A stretch of 64,000 bases of DNA from positions 2,592,001 to 2,656,000 of the forward strand of contig OZ241841.1 in the NCBI GenBank assembly GCA_965202665.1, in the 5' to 3' direction. This DNA is from Candidatus Spongiisociaceae bacterium (GTDB taxonomy: Bacteria > Actinomycetota > Acidimicrobiia > Spongiisociales > Spongiisociaceae). How positions within the stretch are numbered: position 1 is the first letter of the stretch; every line of letters begins with the position of its first letter. The position numbers and the translations under genes are program-made. This document shows, piece by piece, positions 7,392-61,731 of this stretch. The notes beneath the pieces were generated by a model, which worked only from the letters and a program-made list of their open reading frames with translations, was not told the DNA's origin and did not search any database.

Positions 7392-7595
7392 GCCGGGCTA
7401 TGACGACGCGTGGGATTCCTACAAGGCATCCGAGGGCGTCGTGTAGGTCGTAAAACCCGAATAGCGAATAGCGAGCCCGCCCCGTTCCCCGCAGATAGGA
7501 TTCGGGGAAGCAGGCGAGAAAGGGGAGGCGAGGCAATGAAAACCGGAGGGCAGAGGGCGGATGTTCAACAGGGTTTGCCAGCCCAGGAGGGCGGT

Positions 7596-7958
7596 ATGTT
7601 CGTTATTCGCCCCGCTAGCGTCTGGTTGGCGATCTGGGGGCAAAAGGGCTTTCAGGGCAACAAGAGCATCATCCCGGCGGATGTTTTCCCCGAATGGAAA
7701 CGCCCCAAGGTGACCGCCGCCTCCAATTTGGTGGAGGCCGCCAACCTGGTGATGTCCGGCGAGGTCAATGGTTTTCGCACCACGTTCGATAAGATGCTGG
7801 CCGAACCGATCTGGATACCGCGCTACGTGGACCCGCAGAATACCGCCTACTTGATCAGTTTCCATCCGCCCGAGGTGGTGAAGGCCGGCAATTTTTTCAC
7901 CATCAACGGCGGCGAAGCCTCGTTTCTAGCCGAGTGGGAGGTAGTAGCAACCGGCTGA
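7596..7958 (+). CDS. Hypothetical soluble protein, paralog of 9469-9852
   Basis: SD GGAGG before ATG 7596 (alternative start 7536). Shares W-x3-W-x4-F-x-GN, VMSG, Y-x-DP and HP-x-E motifs with 9469-9852. Confidence 0.7.
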   Translation: MFVIRPASVWLAIWGQKGFQGNKSIIPADVFPEWKRPKVTAASNLVEAANLVMSGEVNGFRTTFDKMLAEPIWIPRYVDPQNTAYLISFHPPEVVKAGNFFTINGGEASFLAEWEVVATG

Positions 7959-7983
7959 CCTGTTCCTACCGAACAGAGTCATT

Positions 7984-8571
7984 ATGGATGGCGGCAAGGC
8001 GTTGGAGCAGGTGCTCCAAACGTTGCAGCTTTTTATTCCGGCGACTGGTATCGGCGCGCCGGTGGTGTTGCTGATGGTCGGATGGTATTACTCTTTCCTC
8101 GACCGGGGTGGCCAAGCCCCAAGGATCGATTTCCGTAAGCTGGTTCGGCGAGGATTCGGGATGCTGGCCATCGGTGTTGTGTTTCCTATCGGCCTTTCCA
8201 GCGCCGAGTTCTGGCTAACAGGGCCCGCATCCCGGTATTCCCCAGCGACCTTGGCCGTTATCGGAAACTTTGCGGTGACGGCGATGTTGATTGGGATATT
8301 CGTGCTGATATTATCCGCCGTCAGGGTGTTCCGTGCGTCGCCGCCCGGGAAGAGTGCGCTTGAAGACGAGAAGGCGTTGGTGTTGTCGGATTACCAAGAA
8401 GGCCTCATCGCTAAATTTTCAGGCATTTCGCCAAAAGCTTCCAAACCCGAGGAATCCTCCGGCGGGGGGCAAGCTGTCAGCGTTGAGGATTTCAGAGCTT
8501 CGCAGATGTGGCCCGGTTCTCCAGATGCCGACGGATCGCCTGGGGACGGAGAGTCCGAATTTCACGACTAG
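7984..8571 (+). CDS. Hypothetical 3-TM membrane protein with acidic disordered tail
   Basis: Three hydrophobic segments, then a Ser/Asp/Glu/Gly-rich C-terminus. Starts 25 nt after the upstream gene. Confidence 0.65.
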   Translation: MDGGKALEQVLQTLQLFIPATGIGAPVVLLMVGWYYSFLDRGGQAPRIDFRKLVRRGFGMLAIGVVFPIGLSSAEFWLTGPASRYSPATLAVIGNFAVTAMLIGIFVLILSAVRVFRASPPGKSALEDEKALVLSDYQEGLIAKFSGISPKASKPEESSGGGQAVSVEDFRASQMWPGSPDADGSPGDGESEFHD

Positions 8572-8588: not shown

Positions 8589-8882
8589 TTAAGTGGATTG
8601 CGTGAAGAGGGCATTTTCCACACGCACCGAGGCGGACACCTGTTCGGGTGCTCCGCCGGTGTCAATCACAAGATGCCAGCGGCCCGCGGACGGGATCGGT
8701 ATATGACAGGGCGAGGCGGTGACATGTCCGCCATAGTACCGGTGCCGCCGTCCCCGCCGATATTCATTTAGGTTGTGGTCATCCATCAGTCGAACGTTCG
8801 CCTCGCCAGAAAGGTCCACTACCACCATCCTCCCGGCCTCTTGATGTCCCAGATCGTAATGTGAAAACTTCATAATCCGCAT
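8589..8882 (-). CDS. DUF1883-domain protein
   Basis: 'HYDLG...ANVRLMD..N...YR.GRRHRYYGG.VT.SP..IPIPS.G.WHLVID' matches DUF1883 as I recall it. SD GGGGAGGG before ATG 8882. Confidence 0.75.
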   Translation of the reverse strand: MRIMKFSHYDLGHQEAGRMVVVDLSGEANVRLMDDHNLNEYRRGRRHRYYGGHVTASPCHIPIPSAGRWHLVIDTGGAPEQVSASVRVENALFTQST

Positions 8883-9001
8883 GGTACCCTCCCCGATGCC
8901 CGCCCGCGGGGGGATTGCGTTTTTTGGAAGTGCGTCTGACGCGGGCAAGCGGTTGCGGGTTGCTCCCCGGGGCTTCGCGCCGCACGGCTGGATCTGATGC
9001 G

Positions 9002-9468: not shown

Positions 9469-9852
9469 ATGGCCGTCGAACGGAAAAACCGCTTTCTTAT
9501 CACCTCTGAGGCGGCTTGGTTCACGTTGTGGACGGAAGGCGTGTTTCGGGGCAACGGGCAGTTGAACCCGTTGATAACGGGATGGGAGACCCCCCGTACT
9601 ATGGAAGCGGCCGATGTATACGCGGCCGCCGCGGACGTGATGAGCGGTCAGGCGGCGGGGAAGCCCACCGTGCTGGGCAAGGAAAAGTACGGGCAGGTGG
9701 AATGGTTCGCCCTGTATACCGACCCGAAGATGATCAGGCTGATCTGCCAACATCCATACGAACGCGTCCGGCACTTGCGGTTGCTGGACACCTCCAAAGG
9801 GAAACGTCCGAAACTCCTGTTGCAGTGGCAAGTCCAGGTCATAGACCGATAG
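9469..9852 (+). CDS. Hypothetical soluble protein, paralog of 7596-7958
   Basis: Strong SD AAGGAGG. Motifs are conserved with 7596-7958. Confidence 0.75.
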   Translation: MAVERKNRFLITSEAAWFTLWTEGVFRGNGQLNPLITGWETPRTMEAADVYAAAADVMSGQAAGKPTVLGKEKYGQVEWFALYTDPKMIRLICQHPYERVRHLRLLDTSKGKRPKLLLQWQVQVIDR

Positions 9853-9880
9853 CGGGCGGCGGGTACGGAGGGAGGCGGAT

Positions 9881-10375
9881 ATGACCGCGGGGGAGTATTT
9901 GACGTTGGCGATGCAAGGCTTGCTGACCGTGGACACCATCCTGGCAGTGGGGGTGGTGGCCTGGTTGCAGTTGGAGCAGATCAGGGTGGCGGCCGTCCAT
10001 CCATCGCGCCGCATCTGGGCGGAGGTGAAATGGTGCGTGCTATGGCTGATCGCGACGGCGGTCGGAGCGCCGTTGCTGGTGCTCATCGCCTGGAGGCCGG
10101 TGGAGGTCTTGTTTCTGGCGGCGGTTCCGGGCGGAATACCCGGATGGTTGTCATGGCTGTTGGTAGCCGCCATACCCTGCGCCGTAGTGGGCGGGGCCCT
10201 GCATAGGGGCGACCGTTTGTGGAGAGAGGTGCTACAGGTTCGGCACGAGGCGGGCTTCGGCGGAGTAATCACTGTCAACATCTCGTCGGGTGACGATGAT
10301 TCAAAAGTGGAATACCCTTCGTCGGATGATCCTCGGTCTTATAACTCCCCATCGTCTGCTAGCATGGAAAAATGA
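9881..10375 (+). CDS. Hypothetical 3-TM membrane protein with acidic tail
   Basis: SD GGAGG, three hydrophobic segments, 'SSGDDDSK...SSDD' tail. Same layout as 7984-8571. Confidence 0.65.
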   Translation: MTAGEYLTLAMQGLLTVDTILAVGVVAWLQLEQIRVAAVHPSRRIWAEVKWCVLWLIATAVGAPLLVLIAWRPVEVLFLAAVPGGIPGWLSWLLVAAIPCAVVGGALHRGDRLWREVLQVRHEAGFGGVITVNISSGDDDSKVEYPSSDDPRSYNSPSSASMEK

Positions 10376-10643: not shown

Positions 10644-10665
10644 TGTCGCACCGGTGTGGTAGAAA
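10644..10665 (+). promoter_or_regulatory. Imperfect PafBC-like promoter upstream of the SNF2 gene
   Basis: TGTCGC-accggtgtgg-TAGAAA has the TGTCG core, N10 spacing and TA. The final T is missing. Confidence 0.4.
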
Positions 10666-10685
10666 TATGGTTATGGGATGTTCCT

Positions 10686-13600
10686 ATGCTGCTTAGCGAG
10701 ATCAAGCCGGGTATGCGGTTGGCGGGGGTGCGGGCCGACGGGCCGGTGGAGGTGGTGGCCTTCGATTTGATCGACGACCGGATGGGGACGCTGGTTTACC
10801 GGGCCTTTGACGACGCATTGGGGCAACGGCTGGTGTCCGCTGAGGACGCCCTCCGGTTTTCAGAAGCCTCCGACCGGCGGTGGACGTTCGACGCCGACGG
10901 CGACCTGTTCCGGCTGGCCTCCGAGGCGCGGCGCATCGGGCTGGCCCACCTGTTCGACCCGTTCGCCGCCGTGGACGCCTCCGGCATCGACCCGTTGCCC
11001 CACCAGATCGAGGCCGTCTACCAGAAACTGCTGCCCCTCCAGCCTCTGGCTTTTCTGCTGGCCGACGATCCGGGGGCCGGCAAAACCATCATGTCCGGCC
11101 TTTACATCCGGGAGTTGATGTTGCGGGGCGCCCTGTTCCGTTGCCTGGTGGTGGCCCCCGGTTCGCTGGTGGAGCAGTGGCAGGAGGAGTTGCACGACAA
11201 GTTCAACCTGCGTTTTGAGATTTTCACCCGGGAGATGGTGGAGGCGACCCTCTCCGCCAACCCGTTCCTGGAAAAAGACCTGCTCATCGCCCGCTTGGAC
11301 CAGTTGGCCCGCAACGAGGACCTGCAGGCGAAACTGGAACAGGCCTCGCAGAGCAAAGAATGGGATCTGGTGATAGTGGACGAAGCCCACAAAATGTCCG
11401 CCCACCAGTACGGACCGGACCTGAGAAAGACCAAGCGGTTCCAGTTGGGGGAAAAACTGCGGGATCAGGCCCGCAACCTGCTGTTGCTCACCGCCACCCC
11501 CCACAACGGCAAAGACGAGGATTTCTTCGCTTTTATGACCTTGCTGGACCCGGACCGGTTCGCGGGCCGCCGCCGTCCCAACAGCCCCCCGCCGGAATAC
11601 GATGATCTTCTAAGCCGCAACAGCAAAGAGAAACTGCTCACCTTCGACGGGAAAAAGCTGTTCCCGGAGCGCCGGGCGGAAACCCTGGCCTACGACCTAA
11701 GCGACCCGGAGCAAAAACTTTACGAAGAGGTTACCGATTATGTCCGCCACGGAATGAACCGGGCCGACCAGCTCCGGGAGCAGAACGACCGCCGGGGGTT
11801 CGTCATCGGCTTCGCCCTGGTCGGCCTGCAACGGCGTCTGGCATCCTCCCCGGAGGCCATCTACCAGTCGCTTCGCAGGCGCCGGGAGCGCGTGGAGAAA
11901 AGGCTGGCGGAAATCCGCAACCCGTCCGTCCGGGAGGAGGCTCGTCCTCCCCAGCCCCGCCTCGGCCTGAACAGGTTGCCGGACAGCCTGGAAGAGTTCG
12001 ACCCGGACGAATTCGACGAGGACGACTTTGAGCGATGGGAGAACCAAGGGGTGGAGGAAGCGGCGGTCGATTTGGCCGACCCGGAAGAGCTGGAAAAAGA
12101 GATAAGGCAACTGAGAGGGTTGGAAGATATGGCCAACCGGGTGCGAAAATCGGGCAAGGACAGCAAATGGAACCAGCTGGCCGACTTTCTGGATTCGGAG
12201 GATTTCAAAGGCGGCGACCCGCCCCGCAAACTGATCGTGTTCACCGAACATAAAGACACCCTCCATTACCTGACCGCGAAAATTCAAACCAGGCTGGGCC
12301 GGACGGAGGCGGTGGAAAACATCCACGGCGGGATGAAACGGGAGGATCGCCGCCGCGTCCAAGACCGCTTCCGCAACGACCCGCGGGCGAGGGTGCTGGT
12401 GGCCACCGACGCCGCCGGGGAAGGCGTGAACCTGCAACGGGCCAACCTGATGGTCAACTACGACCTGCCTTGGAACCCGAACCGGATCGAGCAACGCTTC
12501 GGGCGCATCCACCGCATCGGCCAGACCGAAGTGTGCCATCTGTGGAACCTGGTGGCCCTTTCCACCCGGGAAGGCCAAGTGTTCGAACGGCTTTTGCAGA
12601 AGTTGGAGAACCAACGGGAGGCTTTGGGCGACGAAGTGTACGACGTGTTGGGCGACCCGCAGATCAACCAGTCCCTTCAAAAAGCCCTGTTGGATGCGAT
12701 ACGCTACGGCGCCCAACCGCATGTCAAGGCGCAAATCGAGATGGTGGTCGACGCCGAAATCGGGGACCGGGTTAAAGAACTGGTGCAACAGCGGGCGTTG
12801 GCGGGGGAGGTGATGTCGGCCGCCGAACTGGAGGAGATACGCCAGCAGATGGAACTGGCCAAAGCCCGCAAACTGTCCCCCGGCTTCGTGCAGTCGTTCT
12901 TCGCCGAAGGTTTGGATCGGATGAAGGGGAGAATGGCGGGCCGGGATCGGGGCCGGTTTGAAATCACTCGCGTTCCCGCCCGGTTGCGCCTCCAACATCA
13001 GGCGAAAGGCCCCATCCACGACCGCTACGAACGGGTGACTTTCGACAAGGATTTGGTGGAAGGCGAAGCCGGAAAACCGCGGGCCGAATTGATCGCCCCC
13101 GGCCATCCGTTGCTGGCCGCCCTGATGGAAGAAGTTTTGGGCGAGTACGGCCATATGCTGGCGGCGGGGGCGACGCTGGTGGACGAATCCGATCCCGGCG
13201 TCGAACCCCGGACGCTCATCTACCTGGATCATAAAATCACCGACGGGCGGTTCGACTCCCGCGGCCATCCGGAGACGGCTTCCCGCAAATTCCAATATGC
13301 GGAAGTGGACCGCAACGGGAATGTCAGCGACCCCACCGCCGAGCCCTATCTAAACTATCGGGCGCTGACCGGAGAGGAGCCGGAGCTGGTGGCGGCGCAA
13401 GTGGATCATTCCTGGGCGGATGCGGAGGTAGAACGGGTGGCCAAAAATTGGGCGATCGCCAACCTGGCTACACCGCATCTGAAGCAGACTTCGAAGTTGA
13501 CAAAGGCGCGGGTGGATCGGGTGCGGCGGGCGGTGAAGCAGCGGCTCAATTCGGAAATAAGATTCTGGGACCGCCAGGCCAGCAAATTTAAGGAGCAGGA

Positions 13601-14195
13601 ACTGCGGGGGAAGAAACCAAAACGCACTTCCGGCTACGCCCGGCAACGGGCCGACGAGTTGGCGGGCCGCCGGGACAACCGGTTGCGGGAACTGGAGGCG
13701 GAGGCCGAACTGGTCAATCATCCGCCGACGGTGGCAGCGGCAGCCCTGGTGATACCGCAGGGCCTGTTGGACGAGTTGAACGGGACGCAGCCGTCTTTGA
13801 CTCCGGGGGAGACGGAGGAAACCGACCGCCGGGCGGTGGCGGCGGTGCTGGCGGCGGAACGCCGGTTGGGGAGGGAGCCGCAGGAAATGGAGCACAACAA
13901 TCCGGGATTCGACATTATGTCCCGCGCTCCGGACGGGTTCTGCTTCTACATCGAGGTGAAAGGCCACAAACCGACCACCCCGGAAATCAAAGTAAGCAAA
14001 GTGCAGGTGCAACAAGGCCAGCACCACCCGGACCGGTTCCGCCTAGCGGTAGTGGAAGTGCCGGAGGACCCGGAGGGCGAACCGAAAGTGTCCTACCTGC
14101 TAAAGCCGTTCGACGGCTACGACCTCCATTTCGCCCAAGCCAGCCTCCCCCTGAAAGTATCCGACCTAATGACCCAAGCAGTAAACCCCCAATGA
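10686..14195 (+). CDS. SNF2-family helicase with C-terminal DUF3883 (PD-(D/E)xK) nuclease domain
   Basis: 'LLADDPGAGKT', 'DEAH', 'LTATPH', 'GEGVNLQ', 'WNPNRIEQRFGRIHRIGQ'. C-terminal 'NPGFDI...YIEVKG'. Confidence 0.93.
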   Translation: MLLSEIKPGMRLAGVRADGPVEVVAFDLIDDRMGTLVYRAFDDALGQRLVSAEDALRFSEASDRRWTFDADGDLFRLASEARRIGLAHLFDPFAAVDASGIDPLPHQIEAVYQKLLPLQPLAFLLADDPGAGKTIMSGLYIRELMLRGALFRCLVVAPGSLVEQWQEELHDKFNLRFEIFTREMVEATLSANPFLEKDLLIARLDQLARNEDLQAKLEQASQSKEWDLVIVDEAHKMSAHQYGPDLRKTKRFQLGEKLRDQARNLLLLTATPHNGKDEDFFAFMTLLDPDRFAGRRRPNSPPPEYDDLLSRNSKEKLLTFDGKKLFPERRAETLAYDLSDPEQKLYEEVTDYVRHGMNRADQLREQNDRRGFVIGFALVGLQRRLASSPEAIYQSLRRRRERVEKRLAEIRNPSVREEARPPQPRLGLNRLPDSLEEFDPDEFDEDDFERWENQGVEEAAVDLADPEELEKEIRQLRGLEDMANRVRKSGKDSKWNQLADFLDSEDFKGGDPPRKLIVFTEHKDTLHYLTAKIQTRLGRTEAVENIHGGMKREDRRRVQDRFRNDPRARVLVATDAAGEGVNLQRANLMVNYDLPWNPNRIEQRFGRIHRIGQTEVCHLWNLVALSTREGQVFERLLQKLENQREALGDEVYDVLGDPQINQSLQKALLDAIRYGAQPHVKAQIEMVVDAEIGDRVKELVQQRALAGEVMSAAELEEIRQQMELAKARKLSPGFVQSFFAEGLDRMKGRMAGRDRGRFEITRVPARLRLQHQAKGPIHDRYERVTFDKDLVEGEAGKPRAELIAPGHPLLAALMEEVLGEYGHMLAAGATLVDESDPGVEPRTLIYLDHKITDGRFDSRGHPETASRKFQYAEVDRNGNVSDPTAEPYLNYRALTGEEPELVAAQVDHSWADAEVERVAKNWAIANLATPHLKQTSKLTKARVDRVRRAVKQRLNSEIRFWDRQASKFKEQELRGKKPKRTSGYARQRADELAGRRDNRLRELEAEAELVNHPPTVAAAALVIPQGLLDELNGTQPSLTPGETEETDRRAVAAVLAAERRLGREPQEMEHNNPGFDIMSRAPDGFCFYIEVKGHKPTTPEIKVSKVQVQQGQHHPDRFRLAVVEVPEDPEGEPKVSYLLKPFDGYDLHFAQASLPLKVSDLMTQAVNPQ

Positions 14196-16938
14196 CCGCC
14201 CCCCCCCCCCATATCACCCCAAACTCATAGAGGTAGCACTCCCGTTGGATGTCATAAGCCGGGAGTCGGTTCGGGAGAAGAGGATACGGCATGGTCATCC
14301 ATCCACGTTGCATTTGTGGTGGGCGAGACGACCCTTAGCGGCTGCCCGTGCCGTTTTGTGGGCATCTCTAGTTGACGATCCCTCTGCCCACCTTGATATT
14401 TTCCCTACCGAAAAGGAACAGGCCAAAGAAAGGAAGCGGCTATTTGGTATATTAGAAAGGCTTGTTGTATGGGAAAACCTCCAAGACGAACAGTTGTTGT
14501 TTGAAGCGCGGGTCGAAATAGAGAGGTCGTGTAATGGCGATTTACCAAATGTATTAGATCCTTTTTGCGGAGGCGGTTCTATTCCTTTGGAGGCGAGTCG
14601 TTTGGGGTTACCTGCTTATGGGGGTGATTTGAATCCTGTACCCATTCTCATTACAAAAGCTTTAGTAGAAATACCTCCTCGGTTTGCAGGCAAACCACCA
14701 ATTAATCCTGAAAGTAGGATAGGCTCAAGTTTGAAGACTTGGAAAGGCTCGCAAGGATTAGCTGATGATATTCGGTTTTATGGTGATGTGCTTAAGAAAA
14801 AGGCATGGAAAATATTAGGAAAATTATATCCGAGTGTTGCGTTGCCAAAAGAAAAGGGAGGGGGACTAGTTGAACCTATTGCTTGGTTATGGGCTAGAAC
14901 AGTTGAATCTCCTGATCTATTTTGGAAAGGGTATATACCATTGTTAAAAAATGGCATACTTCGACAGGCTCGTAAAAATAAACCAGTAATTTGGGTAGAA
15001 CCAATCATCAATAACACTACTCAAACTGTGATATATAAAGTTAGAGAAGATGGAATACCTAATGAAGTAACCGTTAGGCGATGCATAGCCACTGGCGCAC
15101 CTCTTGAATTTAGGTATCTACGTCAGCAAGGTCAAAAAGGTCTAATAAAGCAGGCAATGATAGGGGTTGTTGCTAAACAAGGCAGAGGTCGTATTTATCT
15201 GGATCCTGTGGATTTACCTGATATTCCAGAACCAGTTTGGAAACCTGATTTTCCTCTCCCTCCCAAAGCATTGGGGTTTCGAGTTCAGGGTTATGGAATG
15301 AAAAAATGGAGTGATCTATTCACAAAACGCCAATTAAACGCTCTTTCTACCTTTTCTCATTGCTTGTCAAACATAAGAACAATGTTGGAACATGACGCTA
15401 TTGAGGCAGGATTATATGATGATAAGACCCGTCTAAGGGACGGCGGTTCAGGGGTTACTGCATATGCCGACGCGATCATTACTTACTTGGCTTTTGCTAT
15501 TGATAGATGTGTAGCTCGTGGATCCTCTCTATGTATATGGCAATCTGCGAATGAGTCAATTGGACAAGTATTTGGGCGACAAGCTCTTGCTATGGTTTGG
15601 GACTTTGCCGAGAGTAATCCTTTTTCGTCTTCAACCGGTAATTGGAGCAGTAATGTGGAGTGGGTAGCAAAAGCAGTAGCGCAAGTTCCATCTATACAGG
15701 AAGGTGTGATAACAAAAGGTAACGCATTGGAAAGATTGGGGGAGGTAGAGGCACCCTTGATATGTACGGACCCTCCATATTATGATAATGTTCCCTATGC
15801 AGATTTATCGGACTTTTTTTATGTGTGGTTGCGTCACAATTTATCAGATGTATGGCCGGAAGAATGTTCGACAATACTAACTCCAAAAAAGGAAGAGTTG
15901 ATAGCAGATCCAGATCGTGCAGGATCAAAGGATGCGGCCGAGGAACATTTTGAAATGGGAATGGCATCTGTCATGTCTGAAATATCTCGAGTACATAATC
16001 CTGATTTTCCTGCTACCATTTTTTATGCATTCAAACAACAAGAAACTAAAGAAGGTGCTACTGTATCAACCGGTTGGGAAACATTTTTACAAGGGTTAGT
16101 AGATGCACAATTACAGATAACAGCCACCTGGCCAATACGTACTGAAATGCAAGGACGTTTACGGGCTACTGAATCGGCGGCATTGGCATCTTCAGTTGTG
16201 ATCGCCTGTCGTCGTCGTCAAAAAGAGGTACCGATGGAAACACGGGGTGGGTTTATATCCGCTCTTCACAATGAACTTCCTAGTGCCATTCAACTGTTGC
16301 AGGAGCAGAATATTGCCCCGGTTGATATGGCACAGTCGGCTATCGGACCGGGGATGAGAATTTTCTCTCGGTATTCCAAAGTGGTGGAGGCTGACGGGTC
16401 GTCTATGTCGGTTCATGTTGCCCTGGCTCATATCAACGAGGTGTTGGGGGAAGTGTTGTCCGAGGAGGGGGCCGAGTTGGACGCCGACAGTCAGTTTGCT
16501 CTTACCTGGTATGAGCAGTTTGGATATGAACCGGCGCCTTTTGGCGACGCTGATGTGCTAGCCAGGGCTAAGGTGACGGCTGTGTCTGGTGTAGTAGAGG
16601 CGGGAATCGCCGAGTCGCGGGGCAACAAGGTGCGGCTTCTGCGACGGGAGGAACTGGAAGATGACTGGTCGCCGGTGGAGGACAAGCGACGCACCGACTG
16701 GGAGGCAGTGCAACACTTGGTTCGTCTGCTGGACCGTTCGGAGCCAGAAGCGGCCGGTCTGCTGAGGCAGTTGGGCGATTTGGCGGATCGGGCTCGGCAG
16801 TTAGCCTATTTGCTGTATGCGGTGTGCGATAAGAAGGGCTGGTCGGAGGAGGCAGTAGCATACAATGGCCTGATCGCCGTATGGCCGGAACTTGTACGTT
16901 TGTCGGGTACCTCTGCGGCTCGGCAACAAAAGCTATAG
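14192..16938 (+). CDS. DUF1156 adenine-specific DNA methyltransferase, frameshifted at a poly-C tract after codon 2
   Basis: 'LHLWWARRPLAAAR', 'DPFCGGGSIP', 'TDPPYY'. The conserved 'KLIEVALPL' at 14221 is out of frame with the coupled ATG 14192. Confidence 0.9.
14199..14210 (+). repeat. C12 homopolymer in the methyltransferase 5' end
   Basis: ATGACCG-C12-ATATCACCCCAAACTC. C13 or C10 restores the frame. Confidence 0.9.
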
Positions 16939-16960
16939 AACTAGAAAGGGAGTAAAGCCG

Positions 16961-19900
16961 ATGGCCATCGCCAATCATGAACGTTTGCAAACCTGCCTGG
17001 TGCTCCTGCGGGACGGCCTCCGTCCCTACTGTGAGCGCACTTGGGATGGGTTCTACGGGGAAAAATGGCTGTCGGTCGTCAACGACAAGCTGAGGCATCC
17101 CGATACCAGCCCCTCCCCGGAGGATCTGTCGTTCCTGCTGAAAGGCATCAATGCCACTTGGCACGATGTGTGGAAGCATCATTTCGGCCAGGGCGAGCGC
17201 AACTGGATTTCGGAGCTGACCAGGGTTCGCAACGACCATGCCCACAACAAAACCTTTTCGGTGGACGACACCTATCGGGCTTTGGACACGATGGAACGGC
17301 TACTGGAAGCCTTCGGTGCCAGCGAACAGCAACAGAAGGTCAAGTCGCAACGCAACGACCTGATGCGACAACGTTATGAAGGACAGGCTAGGCAGGAACG
17401 TTTCAAGATCGCCCACACAGCAGGCACGCCTAAGGAGGGGTTGACCCCCTGGCGGGAAATCATCCACCCTCACGATGATGTGGCCTCCGGCAGTTTTGAG
17501 CAAGCCGAATTCGCCGCCAACTTGCATGAAGTTTGGTCCGGTTCCGCCTCCGAAGAATATCAGGACGCGAAGGCCTTCTACCGTCGCACCTATCTGACGG
17601 AGGGATTGCGCGACTTGCTGACCGGAGCGGCACGTCGCCTGGCCGGGGCTGGGGGCGACCCGGTGGTGGAGTTGCAGACCAACTTCGGGGGCGGTAAAAC
17701 CCACAGCTTGATCGCCCTCTACCACCTGGCGGGGGAGGTCGCCCCGGCCGAGCTGGCAGGAGTGGGGGAAATGTTGGCTGATGAAGGCCTTGAACTGCCG
17801 GGGGGGATAAACCGGGCGGTGTTCGTCGGCCAGTGGGAGTCGCCCGCCGACCCTTCCGTCAAGCCGGACGGGACGACGGTCAACACCATCTGGGGGGAAA
17901 TCGCTTATCAGTTGGGCGGCGCCGACGGCTATGCAATGGTGGAGGCCGATGACCTGGCCGGAACCAATCCCGGCGGGGCGAAACTGCGGGAACTGCTCCG
18001 GCGATACGGACCGGCCATCATCCTCGTCGACGAATGGGTGGCCTACGCCCGCCAGCTGCCCCAGGATCAGCAACGGAAACAGGTGCCCGCCGGAGACTTC
18101 GACACGCAGTTTACGTTCGCGATGTCCCTCACCGAAGCGGCGGCCGCGGCGGACAATGTGGTGATTCTGATTGTTCTTCCCATATCGGATATTGAAATGG
18201 GCGGCGATATGGGCCGGGAAGCGTATGAAAGGTTGCGGCTCGTGGTCGGCCGCAACGCCGCCCATTGGCAACCCGCCACGCCCGATGAAAGCTTTGAAAT
18301 CGTCCGCCGTCGACTATTCGATCCGATCCCGAATGAAAACCACCGGGCCCGCGACCGGGTTTTGGAAGCCTTTTGGAAGTCCTACAAGGATTCCAACGAT
18401 TTTCCGTCCGAGACCAAAGAGAAAACTTATTTGGAGCGGATGCGCAAGTCCTATCCGATACATCCGGAACTGTTCGACCGGCTTTTCCAGGACTGGTCGG
18501 CTTTGGATAAGTTTCAGCGCACCAGGGGGGCGTTGCGGTTGATGGCGGAAGTCGTTTCCAACCTGTGGAAAAACCAAGACCGCAACCTGCTGATCATGCC
18601 CGGCACTTTGCCGATGGACTATGCGCCGTTGGTGGCCGAGCTGAAGAAATATTTGGAAGAAGGGTGGGATCCGGTCATCAAACGGGATGTGGACGGCCCC
18701 AACGCCCTGCCGGCCCGCATCGATTTGGATAATAAGCAACTGGGGGCGTATTCGGCGACTCGGCGGGTGGCCCGCACCATATACATGGGGTCGGCTCCCT
18801 TGCCTGACGCCAACCGGGGAGTGGATGTCAAGCGGGTGGTGCTGGGATGCGCCCAGCCGGGGGAGCAACCGGGCAAGTTCACGGACGCCCTCAAATATCT
18901 TTCTAACGAGGCCGCCCATTTATATGTGGACGGCTCCCAGTACTGGTATCAGTTGCAACCCAATGTGACCCGGGTGGCGGCGGAACGGGCCGAATCCGAT
19001 TTCGATATCTACGACGCCGATGAGGAGTTGCGGCGGCGCCTGTCGCAGTCAGCTGGCCATACCCGCCGGGACATTTTCCATTCGGTGTCCGTCTTCCCGG
19101 CCGGGCCGGGAGAAGTGGATGATTCGGATGACGGGGTCAGCCTGATTATCCTCCCGCCGGAAAAAGAACATGTTCGGGGCGCTGATAACAGTTCGGCGAT
19201 AGATGCGGCCCGGGAAATTTTGGAGCAACGTTCCGCCGGGCCGCGCCAGCACCGCAACCTGCTGGCGTTTCTGGCCGCCACCGGCAAGCGGGTGGAAGAG
19301 TTGCGTTCCGCCGCCCGGCTCTTTTTGGCTTGGCGCTCCATCGATTCTGACCGCGACTCCCTTAACCTGACCCCGCATCAGCAGAAGCAGGTGGACAGCA
19401 AACTGAAAGAGACCGATCAGACGGTGGACTCCCGCATCAACCTGGCTTTCGAGCACATCCTCACTCCCCGTCAGAAGGCGGGCACCTCCGAGATCGAATG
19501 GTTGGAAAGCAAAGTTGCCGTCGCTGGGAAAGGGTCGTTGCCGGAGCGGGCGGCGAACAAACTCATAGCGGAGGAGAAACTGATTGACTCGTACAGCGGA
19601 GTGCGGGTGCGGATGGATTTGGACGGAGCGTCGCACGCCGAAGTGCCGCTGTGGGGGGAGCGGGGCGACATAACGGTGGGGGAGTTGTGGGCGGCCTACG
19701 CCAACTTCCCCTACATGCCCCGGCTGGCCAATTTCAGCGTGCTGGCCACCGCCATCAGCAACGGAACCGCCAGCATGAGCTGGGAAACCGAAACTTTCGC
19801 CTACGCCGAAGCCCACGACGAAGAGTCTGAAAACTGGCGGGGAATAGTCCGAGGAGCCCAAGTGGACAACCCCGCCCGCAGCGGCGTACTGCTACGCCCC

Positions 19901-20227
19901 GATGTAGTCCCACCCCTGGCCCCCCCGCCGCCCCCACCCCCGCCAAACGGGAACGGCCCGGTCGGTCCCCCTCCGCCTCCGCCAAATGGGCCGGTCACCC
20001 CTGATACGAAACCCACCACTTTCTATGCCGTCTTCAACCTGGACCCGGTACGAGGCATCAGCCAACTAAGCGACATTATGGAAAACGTGTCCAGTCACTT
20101 AGACGGCAAAGTAACACTAACCTTGGAACTAAGAGCCGAAAACCCAAACGGCTTCGACGACCGCACCCGTCGCACAGTAGAAGAAAACACCCAACAACTA
20201 GGCTCTCCAGACTACGATTTCGAGTAA
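16961..20227 (+). CDS. DUF499 AAA+ ATPase with N-terminal Swt1-like HEPN domain
   Basis: 'RNDHAH' (Rx4H), 'PWRE..HPH.DV..G.F.QAEFAANL', 'TNFGGGKTHSL', 'ILVDEW', 'YPIHPELF'. Pro-rich linker near the C-terminus. Confidence 0.92.
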   Translation: MAIANHERLQTCLVLLRDGLRPYCERTWDGFYGEKWLSVVNDKLRHPDTSPSPEDLSFLLKGINATWHDVWKHHFGQGERNWISELTRVRNDHAHNKTFSVDDTYRALDTMERLLEAFGASEQQQKVKSQRNDLMRQRYEGQARQERFKIAHTAGTPKEGLTPWREIIHPHDDVASGSFEQAEFAANLHEVWSGSASEEYQDAKAFYRRTYLTEGLRDLLTGAARRLAGAGGDPVVELQTNFGGGKTHSLIALYHLAGEVAPAELAGVGEMLADEGLELPGGINRAVFVGQWESPADPSVKPDGTTVNTIWGEIAYQLGGADGYAMVEADDLAGTNPGGAKLRELLRRYGPAIILVDEWVAYARQLPQDQQRKQVPAGDFDTQFTFAMSLTEAAAAADNVVILIVLPISDIEMGGDMGREAYERLRLVVGRNAAHWQPATPDESFEIVRRRLFDPIPNENHRARDRVLEAFWKSYKDSNDFPSETKEKTYLERMRKSYPIHPELFDRLFQDWSALDKFQRTRGALRLMAEVVSNLWKNQDRNLLIMPGTLPMDYAPLVAELKKYLEEGWDPVIKRDVDGPNALPARIDLDNKQLGAYSATRRVARTIYMGSAPLPDANRGVDVKRVVLGCAQPGEQPGKFTDALKYLSNEAAHLYVDGSQYWYQLQPNVTRVAAERAESDFDIYDADEELRRRLSQSAGHTRRDIFHSVSVFPAGPGEVDDSDDGVSLIILPPEKEHVRGADNSSAIDAAREILEQRSAGPRQHRNLLAFLAATGKRVEELRSAARLFLAWRSIDSDRDSLNLTPHQQKQVDSKLKETDQTVDSRINLAFEHILTPRQKAGTSEIEWLESKVAVAGKGSLPERAANKLIAEEKLIDSYSGVRVRMDLDGASHAEVPLWGERGDITVGELWAAYANFPYMPRLANFSVLATAISNGTASMSWETETFAYAEAHDEESENWRGIVRGAQVDNPARSGVLLRPDVVPPLAPPPPPPPPNGNGPVGPPPPPPNGPVTPDTKPTTFYAVFNLDPVRGISQLSDIMENVSSHLDGKVTLTLELRAENPNGFDDRTRRTVEENTQQLGSPDYDFE

Positions 20228-20232
20228 CCTCT

Positions 20233-20943
20233 TTATTTGGAAGTATCTTTGCTATGACAGGTTTGTTTTCTATAATGGCAGTAGTCTTTTAAGAGAGAAT
20301 GGCCGATGCTAGTAACATCACGGAAACGTTGGGTCGCCTCTTCTTTGCTGGAATAGCCTGGATGGGATCCGTTGGTATTGAATTCACTAACCTTTTTACG
20401 TAGCCATTCCGTATCTACTTTAGATATTAGACCAATATTATGTAACAAACTTATGGCACTTTTTATACTTTTGGCCTTCCGGCTCTTGACGCGCATATAA
20501 ATTGTCTCCAATAATGACTGCAGAAAAGCACGTAGCATCGCATTACAAGCTTCATAATGACCGCATTCTAGGCAAGAGAGTGCTTCATTGTAGAAATGGA
20601 GTTCTTGGTCCAAATTTGCAGTTTCAAGATACTTGATCAGCAAGCCTGAGCTTTCCCAGTACGGATTTGCGTTCAGGTATTGTTGCATTGCCCTGCGCGC
20701 ATTTGCATGTGTAGGGTTGTCCCATAAGCGGGTAGGTGTTGGCGCCATCCGAGATCGTAGCTCTTCCGCTCTGCTGGATATCTCATGTAACCCTCGCGCA
20801 CCCCCAACCGAGTCCAGCAAATCTTGAGAATTACGAAGGATCGTTAGGTTTCTCGAAAAGTCGCCTTCAAGAAAGAATGGCATTGACATGGTCCTTACCT
20901 CCTTAGGTAATCTGTCCAGGTCGGTGATCTTATTCGTTTTCAT
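20233..20943 (-). CDS. Hypothetical AT-rich protein with a DUF4145/HEPN-like C-terminal domain
   Basis: 'EALSCL..G.YEACNAMLRAFLQ', 'FNTNGSHPG'. Own sigma-A promoter. Confidence 0.55.
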   Translation of the reverse strand: MKTNKITDLDRLPKEVRTMSMPFFLEGDFSRNLTILRNSQDLLDSVGGARGLHEISSRAEELRSRMAPTPTRLWDNPTHANARRAMQQYLNANPYWESSGLLIKYLETANLDQELHFYNEALSCLECGHYEACNAMLRAFLQSLLETIYMRVKSRKAKSIKSAISLLHNIGLISKVDTEWLRKKVSEFNTNGSHPGYSSKEEATQRFRDVTSIGHSLLKDYCHYRKQTCHSKDTSK

Positions 20944-21245: not shown

Positions 21246-21917
21246 ATGACAACTACGTTGCTGTCGCTGATAATCATCTGGCTGGCTGTCTTGCCGGGCG
21301 TCCTGTTCATCTGGGCGTTTGAGATGTTGGCTGGGAGATGGACCACAGGGATACGAGGTGGGCTCTTGCGGTCCGTTGGCTACTCGGCCGTGTTTCACAT
21401 TCTATTTCTTCCTTTAACCTATCATTTGCGGGTTTCCTACTGGGATCGGATATGGGAAGGCATGTATGTCAGTCTTTGGGTTTGGCTATACATGTCCTTA
21501 TATGTGGTTGTACCTATTACGTTGGGATTACTAGCAGCAGGATGGGTTATCAGTAGCGCAACATCCGCTACCTCCAAAAAGTATCGGTGGGCGGGGTTAT
21601 TTGTTGGCAGATCTCCCGCCCCTCGTGCTTGGGATTTCCTTTTTGGCTGGCAACGGGTTGCTGGGTGGGTACGTTTGCGCACCAAAACCGGGCTGTATAT
21701 GGGCGGGTACTATGGAGAAGGATCTTATGTAGCGGGATATCCTGATATACAAGACATTTATCTTACAAGAGCAATAGAGATTGATCCTGATTCCGGTGAA
21801 TTTGGTATAGATTCCGAGGGGAAGCCACTGTCACTGCCTTCTGGTTTGCTTATTCGTTGGGATGAGGTAGAATATTTGGAGTTCACGCCGGATGAAAGGG
21901 AGGATGGTAATGATTAA
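21246..21917 (+). CDS. DUF6338-family membrane protein (N-terminal TMs, C-terminal beta domain)
   Basis: 'LPG', three TMs, 'AWDFLF...WVRLRTK.G..GGYYG..S...YP..QDIYL', 'GLLIRWDEVEYLEF'. Confidence 0.7.
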   Translation: MTTTLLSLIIIWLAVLPGVLFIWAFEMLAGRWTTGIRGGLLRSVGYSAVFHILFLPLTYHLRVSYWDRIWEGMYVSLWVWLYMSLYVVVPITLGLLAAGWVISSATSATSKKYRWAGLFVGRSPAPRAWDFLFGWQRVAGWVRLRTKTGLYMGGYYGEGSYVAGYPDIQDIYLTRAIEIDPDSGEFGIDSEGKPLSLPSGLLIRWDEVEYLEFTPDEREDGND

Positions 21918-56811: not shown

Positions 56812-58167
56812 ATGCAACGGCGCATCTTCGGGTTGGAAAGCGAGTTCGGGGTTACTTGCACTTTGCGGGGCCAGCGGAGGCTCAGCCCGGACGAGGCGGC
56901 CCGGTACCTGTTCCGCAGCGTTGTTTCCTGGGGGCGCTCCTCCAACGTTTTTCTGGAAAACGGGGCCCGGCTGTATCTGGACGTGGGCAGCCATCCCGAA
57001 TACGCCACCCCCGAATGCGACGACATTTTGGATTTGGTGGCCCACGACAAGGCGGGGGAGCGGTTGCTGGAAGGGTTGCGCCGCACCGCCGAACGCAAAC
57101 TGGCCGAAGAGGGCATCAAAGGCGAAATTTTCCTTTACAAGAACAACACCGACTCGGTGGGCAACTCCTACGGATGCCACGAGAACTACCTGGTGGGGAG
57201 GCAGGACGACTTTCAGCGCGTGCTAGACACGCTCATTCCGTTTTTGGTGACCCGCCAGATTTTCTGCGGGGCGGGGAAACTGCTGCACACCCCCCGGGGG
57301 ACGGTGATGTCCATCGCGCAACGGGCCGAGCACATCTGGGAGGGGGTGTCGTCGGCCACCACCCGCTCGCGCCCGTTGATCAACACCCGCGACGAACCGC
57401 ACGCCGACGCGGAACGGTTCCGGCGCCTGCACGTCATCGCCGGCGACTCCAATATGAGCGAATACGCCACCTATGTGAAAGTGGGCGTCACCATCGCCAT
57501 CTTGGAAATGCTGGAGGATAGGGTGGCTTTCCGCGATATGACCATGGCCAACCCGATTCGGGCCATTCGGGAAATCAGCCACGACATCACCTGCCGCCGG
57601 ACGGTGCGCCTCAGCAACGGGCGGGAACTGTCGGCCTTGGACCTCCAGTGGGAATATTTGGACCGGGTGATGCGCTATGCCCGCAACCCGGGCTTTTCCC
57701 CGCCGGTGGCCAAAGCGGTGGAAATGTGGGAGTTTTTGCTCACCGGCTTGGAAAAAGACCCGCTGTCGCTGGGCCGGGAAGTGGACTGGGTGATCAAATA
57801 CCATCTGCTGGAGCATTACCGGCAACGGCACGGCTTGAAGTTGTCCGACCCCCGGCTGTCGCTGTTGGATTTGAGTTACCACGACATCAACCTGGACCGG
57901 GGGCTGTATTACATACTGGCCGGCAAAGGGTTGCTGGATCGGATGGTCACCGAAACGGCGGTGCGCGCCGCCGTCTCCTCCCCTCCGCAGACCACCCGCG
58001 CCCGGTTGCGGGGCGAGTTCATCGCCGCCGCCAAAGCCAAAAAACGGGATTACACGGTGGACTGGGTGCACCTGAAACTCAACGATCAGGCGCAACGAAC
58101 GGTGCTGTGCAAAGACCCTTTCATAGCGGTGGACGAACGGGTGGAGCGCCTAATCGCAGGCCTCTGA
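56812..58167 (+). CDS. pafA: Pup-protein ligase
   Basis: '[11 protein letters not shown]', '[15 protein letters not shown]', '[23 protein letters not shown]'. Confidence 0.97.
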
Positions 58168-58295
58168 TCCCGTCCTCCGGAGCCCTCCTCGGCCCGGTCG
58201 CATAACTTTCCAACCCTCCTATGCTGGCGCGCTTGGAGGCCTCCCCCGAACGGCGGCGGAAAAATAGCGGCCATGCCCGAAAGGAGATCCGGCGG

Positions 58296-58826
58296 ATGCG
58301 CCCTGGCAAAAATTACGACGAAGCGGCCTTGCTGGAAGAAGCCCGCCGCGAGTTGGAGCGGGAGGAATGCCGCTTCCAGGATTCGATGCGAACCATCCGC
58401 TGGTGGTCGGCGGGTTGCCTGGCGGTCACCACCCTGCACGGCGCCCTTCCCTACGGGCTGCTGGAGGGACTGGACAGCGGGGCGGCGCGGGGAGTGACGG
58501 CCTGCGTGATCGTCTCCCTGTGCGGATGGGCCTGGGCGGCGTGGGGGTCGGTTCGCAGGTTGCGACCGCCTACCCGCCCCGCCCGGTCGGATAGTTTGCA
58601 ACAAGCCTATCTGCAAGGCAACTCGGTTGACGCCAGACCGGCGTTGCATGAAATATGGGGCGACCCGGATAATGCCGACCCCGACGAGGGAGTAATACAG
58701 GCGCTCGCCAAGCAATTGAATTCCATGGACAAGAATGCCGTAGAAGTATATAACCTTGTCAGAAGGGCGTGCGTTGTCACCGGTTTGGCCGCTATCACCG
58801 CTTTTTTCGTTGTTGTGCTAGGGTAG
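58296..58826 (+). CDS. Hypothetical 3-TM protein with Pycsar-effector-like topology
   Basis: SD AAGGAG. N-terminal helix, TM-TM-P-loop-helix-TM layout. Confidence 0.55.
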   Translation: MRPGKNYDEAALLEEARRELEREECRFQDSMRTIRWWSAGCLAVTTLHGALPYGLLEGLDSGAARGVTACVIVSLCGWAWAAWGSVRRLRPPTRPARSDSLQQAYLQGNSVDARPALHEIWGDPDNADPDEGVIQALAKQLNSMDKNAVEVYNLVRRACVVTGLAAITAFFVVVLG

Positions 58827-58831
58827 CCGCC

Positions 58832-59653
58832 ATGACTACTGTATCGCCCATTTCGACTCGGATCCCCACCTACGACGAGATGGGGGTTCGCGACACCATT
58901 CTCAAGCATCGGGCTGCCATAACCGCCATAGTAGAAGTCGAACACCACCTGAGTTCCATTAAGGTTTTGCCGCAGTTCAGGGTTAAGGTCACGGACGGGG
59001 ATCCGGGCGCGGTGGAAACCGCCGTGCGCCTGCCGCCGGGTTTCCGCGATCCGGAGATTGAGATGAAAGCAAAGCAAGCTGGTGAATATGAATGGCGTTT
59101 CCCCGGCTGGACGCGACGGCGGCTAAACGAGGTTCCCGCCCTGTGGCCTGCGGTCAAAGTGTTTACCGGCCGGGTCGAGGAGAGATGGCCGGATGATCCG
59201 AAGCCCGGAGTTTGCCGGATCGAGGATATGAGGTGGGGCGGCGAATTTGCTAAGCGGGTCGAGCAACAGATTGCGGATAACATCCTGTCGTCCCTGTACG
59301 GCCATCTTCGAGATGACCTCGGTCGGGAGGTTTCCCCCCTTCCGTCGGATGCGATACCGCGGGCTGGGTTGCGCCGCGGCGCTGCTTCGCTGATCATTCG
59401 TCATCCGTCCACCCCCCACGTCGGCTTGTCCGCGGCCCCCGACGACGGCCGCCCTCGTCCCCACTCCGACCTGGTTTCCGACTTGATTCCGCCGGGGGCG
59501 ATGATCGTGTGCGAGGAGGCGCAAGCAGGATTGGGGGTGGGAGCGCGGGTTACATATCCCTGGTTTTATTACCGCTGGCGCCTCAAGGTGATTATCCACT
59601 ACCGCTGGGCGGTCACCGCGCCGGAGGCCTTTCGCCTGTTCGCCGTCGCTTAG
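58832..59653 (+). CDS. Hypothetical 273-aa protein, possible remote HK97-fold (encapsulin/capsid-like)
   Basis: Starts 5 nt after the upstream stop. C-terminal 'LKVIIHYRWAVTAPEAFRLF' and central helix 'FAKRVEQQIADNIL'. Fold call is tentative. Confidence 0.45.
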   Translation: MTTVSPISTRIPTYDEMGVRDTILKHRAAITAIVEVEHHLSSIKVLPQFRVKVTDGDPGAVETAVRLPPGFRDPEIEMKAKQAGEYEWRFPGWTRRRLNEVPALWPAVKVFTGRVEERWPDDPKPGVCRIEDMRWGGEFAKRVEQQIADNILSSLYGHLRDDLGREVSPLPSDAIPRAGLRRGAASLIIRHPSTPHVGLSAAPDDGRPRPHSDLVSDLIPPGAMIVCEEAQAGLGVGARVTYPWFYYRWRLKVIIHYRWAVTAPEAFRLFAVA

Positions 59654-59739
59654 CCCGGCGGACCGCTGCCCGCCGCCGGATTAGGATTACGCCAGGGGTT
59701 GCGGCGACGGAGGGGCTCATCCGTAAAATCATCAAAACC

Positions 59740-61731
59740 GTGCTGGTTCCCGGCAGCGCCACCGCGTTGCTGACCCTGTCGGTGGCGGTGGGCATGGCGG
59801 TGGGGGTGGCCGCCTCGGCCCTCATTTTCGTGTTGGAAACGATGTCCGATTGGCTGGGTTCCCTCACCGAAACCCAACGGCTGGTTCCGTTGGCCCTCAC
59901 CCCGCTGGGTTTGACTACGGCCTGGTTGATAACCCGCCGTTTGGCCCCGGAAGCGGCCGGGGACGGAGTGCCGGAAACCCTGGTGGCCCTAGGTACGGAC
60001 CGGGGGCGCATACGGGGACGGGTGGCCCCCATCAAAGGAGCGGCCACCGCCCTCACCGTCGGGTTGGGGGGCAGCGCCGGCCGGGAAGGGCCGATGGTGC
60101 ACATCGGCGGTTCGCTGGGGTCGCTGGCCGCCCGTTGGTTCGGGTTGGGGGAGGATCAGGTGCGCAGCCTGGTGGCGGCCGGGGCGGGGGCGGGGATCGG
60201 GGCTTCCTTCAACGCCCCCATCGCCGGAATGTTGTTCGCCATCGAAATCCTGTTGCGCAACTTCTCCATCCGCCACATTTCCTCCGTGGTGGTGTGTTCG
60301 GTGGCCGCCGCGGTCACCACCCGCTCCATCGTGGGGGAGGAGCTGATTCTGCGGGCCTTCCCCTTCCGGATGGAGGAGCCCCGGGAGCTGGTTTTGTACG
60401 CGGCGCTGGGCGTGCTGGCGGTGGGCGCCGGCTGGCTGTTGCTCAAACTCACCTCCTGGTTGGAGGACCGGAGAATATTCCACTCCGCCCGCTGGACCAC
60501 CCCGGCGCTGGCCGGGCTGATCGTGGGCGGGCTGGGCGCGGCGGATCCCCGCCTCCTGTCCAGTGGCGGGGAACTGGTGGCCGGCCTGGTGCGGTTCGAA
60601 CCGGAGATAGGGCTATGGTGGGTGCTGGGCCTGCTGGCGGCCGGCAAAATATTAGCTTCCTCGGTTACCTTCGCGGGCCGCGGTTCGGGCGGGGCTTTCA
60701 TGCCCAGCCTGTTCATCGGGGCCGCCTTGGGGGCCTCCTTCGCCCACCTGGCGGACGGGTTCTGGAACCTGTCCGTCCTGCAACCGGGCGCTTTCGCGGT
60801 GGTGGGCATGGCGGCCTCCTTCTCCGCCCTGGCCCGGGCTCCCCTGACCGCCATCATCATCGTGTTTGAAATAACCGGCGACTACGGCCTGGTCCTGCCC
60901 CTGATGCTGGCCTCCACTTTGGCCACCCTGCTGGGCGACCGGATCCACAAAGACGGGATTTACACCTACGGCCTGGTCAAAAAAGGCATCCGCCTGGCCC
61001 GTCGTCCGGAGGTGGACATCCTGGACACGATTACGGTCGGCGAGGTGATGAGCGCCGACCACCCCGCGGTCGGCCCGGAAATGACCACCGCCGAACTGCA
61101 GGGCATTTTCGACCGGCGGCGCATCCATGGGGCGGGTGTGGTGGAGGACGGGCGGCTGGTGGGGATCGTGACCGTCACCGACATTATCCGGGCGCAAGGC
61201 CCCAGCGACTCCGTTTCGGCGGCGGATGCCATGACCCGCAACCCGGTCACCGTCTCCACCGGGGCCGCCGTATCGCAGGCTATGGAAAGAATGGCCCGGC
61301 TGGGGGTGGGACGGTTGCCGGTGATGGCCGAGGACGACCCGGAGCGGCTGGCGGGGATGTTCCGCCGGGAGGACGCGGTGACCGCCTACCAGCGGGCTTT
61401 GGCGTCCGAGGTGAGCGGACAGCGGCAGGCGCAACGGCTGCGGGCCCGGATGCTGCCCGGGGCCGACTTCTTTGAATACCTGGTGGGGGAGGGGACGGCC
61501 CTGGCGGGCAAAAAGGTGCGGGAAGCGTCCTGGCCGGAAGGCTGCACGTTGGTTTCCATCCAACGGGGAGCGGACGTGTTCGTGCCCACCGGCGAGACCG
61601 GCTTGGCCGGGGGCGACGTGCTGACCATCTACGGAACCACCGGCGGCCGCCGCCGTTTGGAGGAACGGGCGGGGGCCGAACCCGCCGCTTCCCCGGAGGC
61701 TGATCAGCCGCTGTCGGAACCCTCCCGGTGA
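59740..61731 (+). CDS. CLC-family chloride channel with CBS pair and TrkA-C domain (start uncertain)
   Basis: 'GDGVP', 'GREGP', 'FNAPIAG', 'GGAFMP', 'APLTA..I.FEIT', two CBS domains, C-terminal RCK_C. Confidence 0.92.
   Translation: MLVPGSATALLTLSVAVGMAVGVAASALIFVLETMSDWLGSLTETQRLVPLALTPLGLTTAWLITRRLAPEAAGDGVPETLVALGTDRGRIRGRVAPIKGAATALTVGLGGSAGREGPMVHIGGSLGSLAARWFGLGEDQVRSLVAAGAGAGIGASFNAPIAGMLFAIEILLRNFSIRHISSVVVCSVAAAVTTRSIVGEELILRAFPFRMEEPRELVLYAALGVLAVGAGWLLLKLTSWLEDRRIFHSARWTTPALAGLIVGGLGAADPRLLSSGGELVAGLVRFEPEIGLWWVLGLLAAGKILASSVTFAGRGSGGAFMPSLFIGAALGASFAHLADGFWNLSVLQPGAFAVVGMAASFSALARAPLTAIIIVFEITGDYGLVLPLMLASTLATLLGDRIHKDGIYTYGLVKKGIRLARRPEVDILDTITVGEVMSADHPAVGPEMTTAELQGIFDRRRIHGAGVVEDGRLVGIVTVTDIIRAQGPSDSVSAADAMTRNPVTVSTGAAVSQAMERMARLGVGRLPVMAEDDPERLAGMFRREDAVTAYQRALASEVSGQRQAQRLRARMLPGADFFEYLVGEGTALAGKKVREASWPEGCTLVSIQRGADVFVPTGETGLAGGDVLTIYGTTGGRRRLEERAGAEPAASPEADQPLSEPSR

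Follow-up and report, generated by a model that had tools for sequence, protein, structure and literature searches.

Why should a gene for a small membrane protein and a gene for a predicted capsid-fold protein sit together in a proteasome locus, and what might they do there? The window that raises this question, a 64,000-nt stretch of DNA, comes from the genome (G000) of a sponge-associated member of its family and covers a standard actinobacterial Pup-proteasome region, with the order pafA, ORF A, ORF B, CLC-CBS-TrkA_C gene and pafBC-like genes. A sequence-only reading had described ORF A and ORF B as a two-gene insert with a 5-nt gap, placed right after pafA. This description holds: both ORFs and the gap are found on the sequence, all four motifs quoted from the second protein are present in ORF B, and the adjacent genes include none for a cyclase, a portal, a terminase or a cargo protein. 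The features are as follows.

56812..58167, + strand: pafA, Pup ligase, left flank, context only (PF03136, E 5e-160)
58278..58295, + strand: GGAG (ribosome-binding-like) and spacer, upstream of the start at 58296
58296..58826, + strand: ORF A, putative effector of no known family; 176 aa, predicted three-TM (helix-TM1, TM2, soluble loop with two short helices, helix-TM3)
58827..58831, + strand: 5-nt gap from ORF A to ORF B (TAG CCGCC ATG)
58832..59653, + strand: ORF B, 273 aa, predicted HK97-fold (capsid/encapsulin-like) protein
59686..61731, + strand: CLC-CBS-TrkA_C gene, right flank, context only

ORF A lies on the same strand as pafA, 128 nt downstream of it. An ATG at 58221 offers an alternative start that would give 201 aa; the start at 58296 is favoured because of the GGAG 9 nt upstream and because most homologues start there. 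No sigma-70 promoter or terminator pattern was found, and the interval from pafA to ORF A contains no terminator-like site.

ORF A and ORF B are real genes, as their homologues and dN/dS values of 0.21–0.39 indicate. For ORF B there are 16 homologues at 42–98% identity (among 1,643 candidates); 15 of them are 255–275 aa long, and the remaining one is a truncated form of 163 aa. For ORF A, 24 homologues were recognized among the 7,999 candidates scored; they fall into two clades, and none has a Pfam domain. Full-length proteins are encoded by 21, while the other three are frameshifted, ending in the +1 frame with the loss of TM3. One of the three apparently shares a contig with an intact ORF B homologue. 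Such frameshifts are as expected of a costly gene and may be assembly errors. Searches with the two sequences against Pfam, PHROGs, NCBIfam, PADLOC and PDB sequences returned nothing significant; that is, the pair is invisible to the first four of these resources.

A second genome of the same genus (G001) allows the evolution of the pair to be followed. Between the two genomes, dN/dS is 0.21 for A and 0.34–0.39 for B, compared with 0.08–0.34 for the flanks, and both genes are under purifying selection. Amino-acid identity is 56% for A and 44–49% for B, versus 77–92% for the flanks. The four-fold-site distance of the pair is 0.87–1.1 (54–83 sites, se 0.23–0.33) versus 0.22–0.34 in six flanking genes. 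Silent sites of the pair have thus diverged about three times as far as those of the flanks, and the alleles of the pair are older than the split of G000 and G001. The four-fold-site excess points to cassette exchange, hidden paralogy or balancing selection, which a comparison of two genomes cannot separate.

Could the pair simply be a neutral relic of an old prophage, a capsid gene left behind with a holin-like or moron membrane gene? A capsid origin would suit this explanation, as would the GC3 of 0.72 for ORF A and 0.70 for ORF B (0.81–0.87 in nine flanking genes) and the facts that some alleles are broken and that G001 retains a tail remnant of 24 residues. However, dN/dS well below 1 over saturating silent divergence is the mark of purifying selection and largely refutes it, and most homologues of both genes are full length. 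Furthermore, neither the portal family PF04860, the terminase families PF03354 and PF03237 nor PF25209 was found in any of five genomes (G000, G001, G004, G009 and G013), and PF05065 and PF04454 were not matched over cut-off in any of five (G000, G001, G002, G004 and G007). Controls were positive in both searches, which highly diverged versions could escape. A weak PF04454 match in G000 (E 0.068) is an unrelated gene elsewhere and was set aside. With portal, terminase and head genes found neither nearby nor in five genomes, a prophage, GTA or satellite capsid gene was also rejected as an identity for ORF B. No relatives were found in the viral contigs and GenBank phages searched, and we consider a relic very improbable.

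How widely is the pair distributed? ORF B is present in two of 61 relatives, G000 and G001. Class-wide, with 5–7 candidates per genome scored, a B-type profile is matched in one of 401 genomes (the window's own) and the profile of a related type, P0032, in none of the 401. Among 1.84 billion representative proteins, the ORF B profile has four real matches; the other two of the six returned by this 1.8-billion-protein search (P0026 and P0027) are repeat proteins and were dropped. Immediately downstream of pafA, 28 family genomes show A and B in 2 cases, the CLC gene in 3, pafB in 21, another gene in 1 and a contig end in 1 (103 nt after pafA). Given its presence in 2 of the 28, the pair entered the interval from pafA to CLC in this genus alone; it is a genus-specific, selectively maintained insert. 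At the pafA site of G001, A is followed by two tandem B copies that are 53% identical to each other, and A overlaps the first B by 4 nt (ATGA), versus the 5-nt gap in the window. The locus sequence L001 encodes the same two B proteins and was counted once with G001. The expectation that A and B keep company elsewhere is borne out, by this pair at the same site and by a second, divergent pair in the same genome. Three contigs besides G001, sized 134173, 9123 and 18081, apparently also carry homologues of both genes. The 18081 contig apparently carries a full-length A together with the truncated B of 163 aa, an arrangement unexpected under a strict toxin-antitoxin relation.

Near-identical DNA occurs in sponge and marine metagenomes. 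In contigs from four runs (three studies), long pieces differ at 0–2% of letters, no indels are listed within A or B, and the module is unbroken, which would suit a core function as well as a role in defence. None of the datasets listed as matching is an RNA dataset. A search of metagenome contigs for relatives found none; the nearest records possibly lie outside the searched set. The surroundings of pafA vary in other ways too: the CLC-CBS-TrkA_C gene lies between pafA and pafBC in genera g1, g3, g5 and g6 and not in g2, g4 or g7, and in G001 prcA and pafA are separated by a two-TM gene of 91 aa (L001 6844–7119) that is absent from the window.

An accessory role in the Pup-proteasome or the PafBC DNA-damage response, for example as a shell storing pupylated proteins, would fit the strand shared with pafA, the 128-nt spacing and the interval free of terminator-like sites. 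Nevertheless, none of the 26 other family genomes shows the pair after pafA (in one of them the contig ends there), and the paralogues described below lie at unrelated sites, far from paf genes. The proteasome setting thus appears incidental, and an accessory role is extremely improbable.

The central structural claim of the sequence-only reading was that ORF B has an HK97-like fold. We modeled it with AlphaFold2 on a 16-sequence alignment, leaving out the 98%-identical P0003. The model is weak (mean pLDDT 49.6, pTM 0.50, residues 1–70 unresolved; 33–36 for the other four models) and contains a strand at 109–118, a helix at 130–162, a mixed domain at 174–228 and terminal strands at 252–271. 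From HK97 anatomy together with the model, we take residues ~130–162 to be the spine helix, ~165–232 the A-domain, 252–271 the terminal P-domain strands and 71–92 the tip of the E-loop. A Foldseek search of the PDB gave a best E of 5.5e-4 (Pyrococcus encapsulin 2e0z) and three matches at E<=0.001, and all 38 rows listed are capsid or encapsulin entries. A VIA search of 48,161 chains likewise has capsid or encapsulin entries in each of its best 50 rows, with Z from 7.8 to 4.9 and none reaching 8; 2e0z has Z 7.5 (rmsd 5.3, 197 aligned), and the Ccm structure 7rwz is fifth. The VIA alignment spans model residues 25–273, the full fold length. In BFVD the best E is 1.5e-5, with 19 matches at E<=0.001; the best 50 rows comprise 28 with capsid or head protein names, 6 with other names and 16 unnamed. 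ESM Atlas scores for ORF B were only 0.75–0.76 and uninformative. The predicted fold is therefore HK97-like in Foldseek, VIA and BFVD alike. Membership of ORF B in the HK97-fold superfamily is supported, on a low-confidence model, by the uniformity of these match lists; none of the scores is strong by itself.

Encapsulins and phage capsids are tied in the structure matches, so structure gives no choice between them. Of the two earlier suggestions, a domesticated capsid-like protein or a new encapsulin-like family, it is the first that gains support: the origin of ORF B is likely a phage major capsid gene that was domesticated. The second fares less well, since PF04454 is not matched, cargo is absent and a related clade looks nearer to PF05065 phage capsids. 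A new encapsulin-like compartment, in which B would form shells (two-component in G001), A would tether or gate them at the membrane and cargo would be encoded elsewhere, is unlikely. Neither cargo nor a biosynthetic cluster is nearby, PF04454 and PF05065 are not matched over cut-off, and the related P0032 clade is shortened to 226–239 aa. In the ORF B alignment conservation is lowest at the assigned E-loop tip, with a majority of 0.42 and 18% gaps; the majority is 0.63–0.76 elsewhere and 0.74–0.76 in the spine and terminal strands. This, too, speaks against a compartment. Described encapsulins are not known to diverge this fast or to have such scattered paralogues. On the other side, B is encapsulin-sized with the full fold length, and encapsulins are among its top PDB matches. 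In addition, the tandem B copies of G001 recall the two-component operons of Family 2B, and a fused domain of 4–5 TM helices is described for one type of Family 3 (PMC8346489).

Evidence of another kind comes from the paralogues. G001 has six capsid-like paralogues, four of them (P0019, P0020, P0032 and P0033) besides the two at the pafA site; no further one was found in the window's genome. P0019 (298 aa, 23% identical to ORF B) belongs to the second, very divergent pair, in which the three-TM protein P0021 (178 aa, 34% identical to ORF A) is encoded 27 nt upstream. P0021 alone finds the window's genome at E 0.066 only. With the B profile, homologues of P0019 give E 8e-7 and those of P0020 give 1e-8 (whole library). 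P0020 (296 aa) has no TM neighbour and is accompanied by the 24-residue tail remnant. P0032 (226 aa) lies 750 nt from P0019, and P0033 (~297 aa) directly follows uvrB, with an unrelated TM gene 2 nt further on. The P0032/P0033 clade has a weaker link to B (hhalign probability 67%, E 5e-5) and is present in four of the 29 family genomes, namely all three of genus g4 and G001. In ESM Atlas features, the P0032 clade scores 0.94 with phage capsid clusters in which 40–48% of members have PF05065, a lead with only 114–120 of 256 features in common. P0034, a member of the P0032/P0033 clade in G013, overlaps another TM gene and adjoins a YgjP-like peptidase.

Altogether, nine loci were seen: a TM gene is coupled in five, three times homologous to A and twice (at P0033 and P0034) unrelated to it, and no adjacent TM gene is visible in four (P0020, P0032, P0035 and P0036). 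In two g4 genomes, G004 and G009, the clade gene is directly followed by a low-GC soluble gene of ~390–410 aa (L021 197–1363, − strand; L022 3–1226, − strand). The L021 copy has no Pfam, NCBIfam or PADLOC match and is a candidate alternative partner. P0020 is followed by a locally decaying duplication (L006 1818–3127; G001 ~2,189.5–2,190.9 kb), in which alanine-rich ORFs of low complexity are duplicated and a capsid-tail remnant is repeated; L023 has a comparable alanine-rich stretch near 2770–3240.

The neighbours of P0019 and P0032 include a PDC-S01 gene and a type IIG-like R-M gene, and the site after uvrB, occupied by P0033 in G001, carries HmaABC in the window (10656–20227). This three-gene Hma system fills the uvrB–uvrA gap (PADLOC HmaA E 0, HmaB 2.5e-294, HmaC 4e-269); hmaB has a GC3 of 0.39. 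Its flanks in the window include DUF1883 (8589–8948, − strand), a weak DUF4145 match (20233–20943, − strand) and DUF6338 (21246–21917, + strand). The same hotspot contains two pairs of a small soluble gene and a membrane gene (7410–8571 and 9469–10375). They belong to no known family (weak DUF4013 match only), are unrelated to ORF A by HMM and are possible further two-gene defence modules.

For ORF A, the model (pLDDT 70.6) is a three-helix membrane bundle with a long helix at 9–50, a helix at 61–87, two short helices and a helix at 133–175, in agreement with the topology given in the sequence-only reading. Three hydrophobic helices are found in the homologues P0022, P0021 and P0053; in the window's own ORF A the first is below the hydropathy threshold of 1.2. 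Fold searches returned BAR-like and other generic helical bundles, with no PycTM chain among the matches listed. PycTM proteins (PF18967) are available from class relatives, six from 6 of 251 genomes and none from the window's genome. Local hhalign of ORF A with PycTM gave a probability of 0.9% and E 0.062, above 30 column shuffles, and the global score of 7.2 is below 12 of 25 block shuffles. The likeness to Pycsar effectors that had been noticed is therefore one of topology (TM-TM-loop-helix-TM in the model); as a claim of homology it finds no significant PycTM match.

What, then, might the pair do? Our tentative proposal is an anti-phage module in which a domesticated capsid protein may act as decoy or sensor for a membrane effector. 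A and B would be co-translated from the pafA transcript, and B, as monomer or capsomer, would hold A quiet. Infection would draw B into phage head assembly through contacts with capsid, scaffold, portal or prohead protease, and A, released or clustered, would oligomerise in the membrane and arrest the cell. We propose this because there is no cargo, the E-loop tip is variable, the paralogues are many and diverged, neighbours include defence hotspots, and coupling to small TM genes recurs (in the window, in G001 and in the second divergent pair). The diverged alleles, such as exchanged or long-polymorphic cassettes would show, and the PycTM-like size and colinear topology of A also count in its favour. 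Counting against it are the low confidence of the ORF B model, with Z below 8; the lack of significant PycTM homology for A and of a PADLOC match for A or B; the four loci without a TM gene and the unrelated TM neighbours of P0033 and P0034; and the pafA–CLC site, which is not itself a defence island.

The blocking of a phage by the satellite protein Ccm supports the decoy proposal and also another one, in which B alone would poison phage head assembly in a dominant-negative, Ccm-like manner (PMC5052747) and A would be a membrane anchor or an independent passenger. The four loci with no TM neighbour suit this second explanation, and the six paralogues of G001 would cover several phage types. 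We think it quite unlikely, since A has kept its place ahead of B through a deep duplication, dN/dS is lower in A than in B, and satellite genes are absent around the pair. Other roles, such as host interaction, have a slight chance of being correct. Somewhat more doubtful than the decoy module itself is its extension to a new immunity class in sponge-symbiont Acidimicrobiia, in which capsid decoys, up to six per genome and with interchangeable membrane partners, would read phage head assembly and fire a cognate three-TM effector.

If true, the sensor–effector reading would be categorically new among domesticated capsid genes and would add a principle of self-mimic (decoy) sensing to phage defence; if B instead forms shells, the pair would be a fifth, membrane-linked type of encapsulin. 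On either reading the two-gene, 1.36-kb cassette is directly testable and bears on how capsids become cellular proteins, with a reach limited by its narrow range in uncultured symbionts. A chromosomal defence pair of an HK97-fold and a TM protein was not found in the literature searched (main texts, mostly outside subscription journals).

Among known systems, encapsulins are the first to compare, with family definitions taken from the available parts of PMC8346489 and PMC11664910. Like encapsulins of families 1–4 as defined there, ORF B is a stand-alone chromosomal HK97-fold gene of about 270-aa size without phage packaging genes, occasionally in tandem. Unlike them, it has no PF04454, PF05065 or PF08967 match, no cargo enzyme and no biosynthetic cluster; it is coupled to a separate three-TM gene, diverges fast, has up to six paralogues and belongs to a family restricted to two genera of one family. 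Thus, family 1 was rejected for want of a PF04454 Linocin_M18 match, and families 1 and 2 for want of an operon cargo enzyme (the neighbours are pafA, the TM gene and CLC). Family 3 was rejected because there is no PF05065-type shell in a natural-product gene cluster, and family 4 (A-domain only, ~100 aa) because ORF B has 273 aa and is aligned over 25–273.

ORF A shares with PycTM a length in the 170–190 aa range, the order TM-TM-loop-helices-TM and an end-to-end colinear alignment of 155 columns. It differs in having no PF18967 match, no cyclase and a score not above block-shuffled controls, and the words conserved in six PycTM members (AD.KA, LFFG and KY..LR) are absent from it; with no adjacent pyrimidine cyclase and no PycTM domain, a Pycsar system was rejected. 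The available text of PMC13069673, in treating PycTM, does not mention a capsid partner. HK97-family phage major capsid proteins (PF05065) resemble ORF B in predicted fold; unlike them, ORF B has no HMM match, no portal, terminase or protease neighbours and no relatives found in viral contigs.

The closest functional parallel is Ccm of SaPIbov5, which according to the available part of PMC5052747 has an HK97 fold, is 19% identical to the helper capsid, cannot replace it and blocks the phage; expressed alone, it lowers phage titre 10^3–10^4-fold. Both Ccm and ORF B are diverged HK97-fold capsid homologues outside a virion of their own, in the case of Ccm in conflict with phages. Ccm, however, is encoded on a mobile satellite and carries a delta-like domain at its N-terminus (PMC5052747), whereas ORF B belongs to the core chromosome, is paired with a membrane protein and has no satellite genes in its vicinity. 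In the available part of a review of domesticated mobile genes, encapsulins are the case of stand-alone HK97 genes (PMC8987985); the family described here looks like an independent domestication of a capsid gene, without cargo and with a membrane partner.
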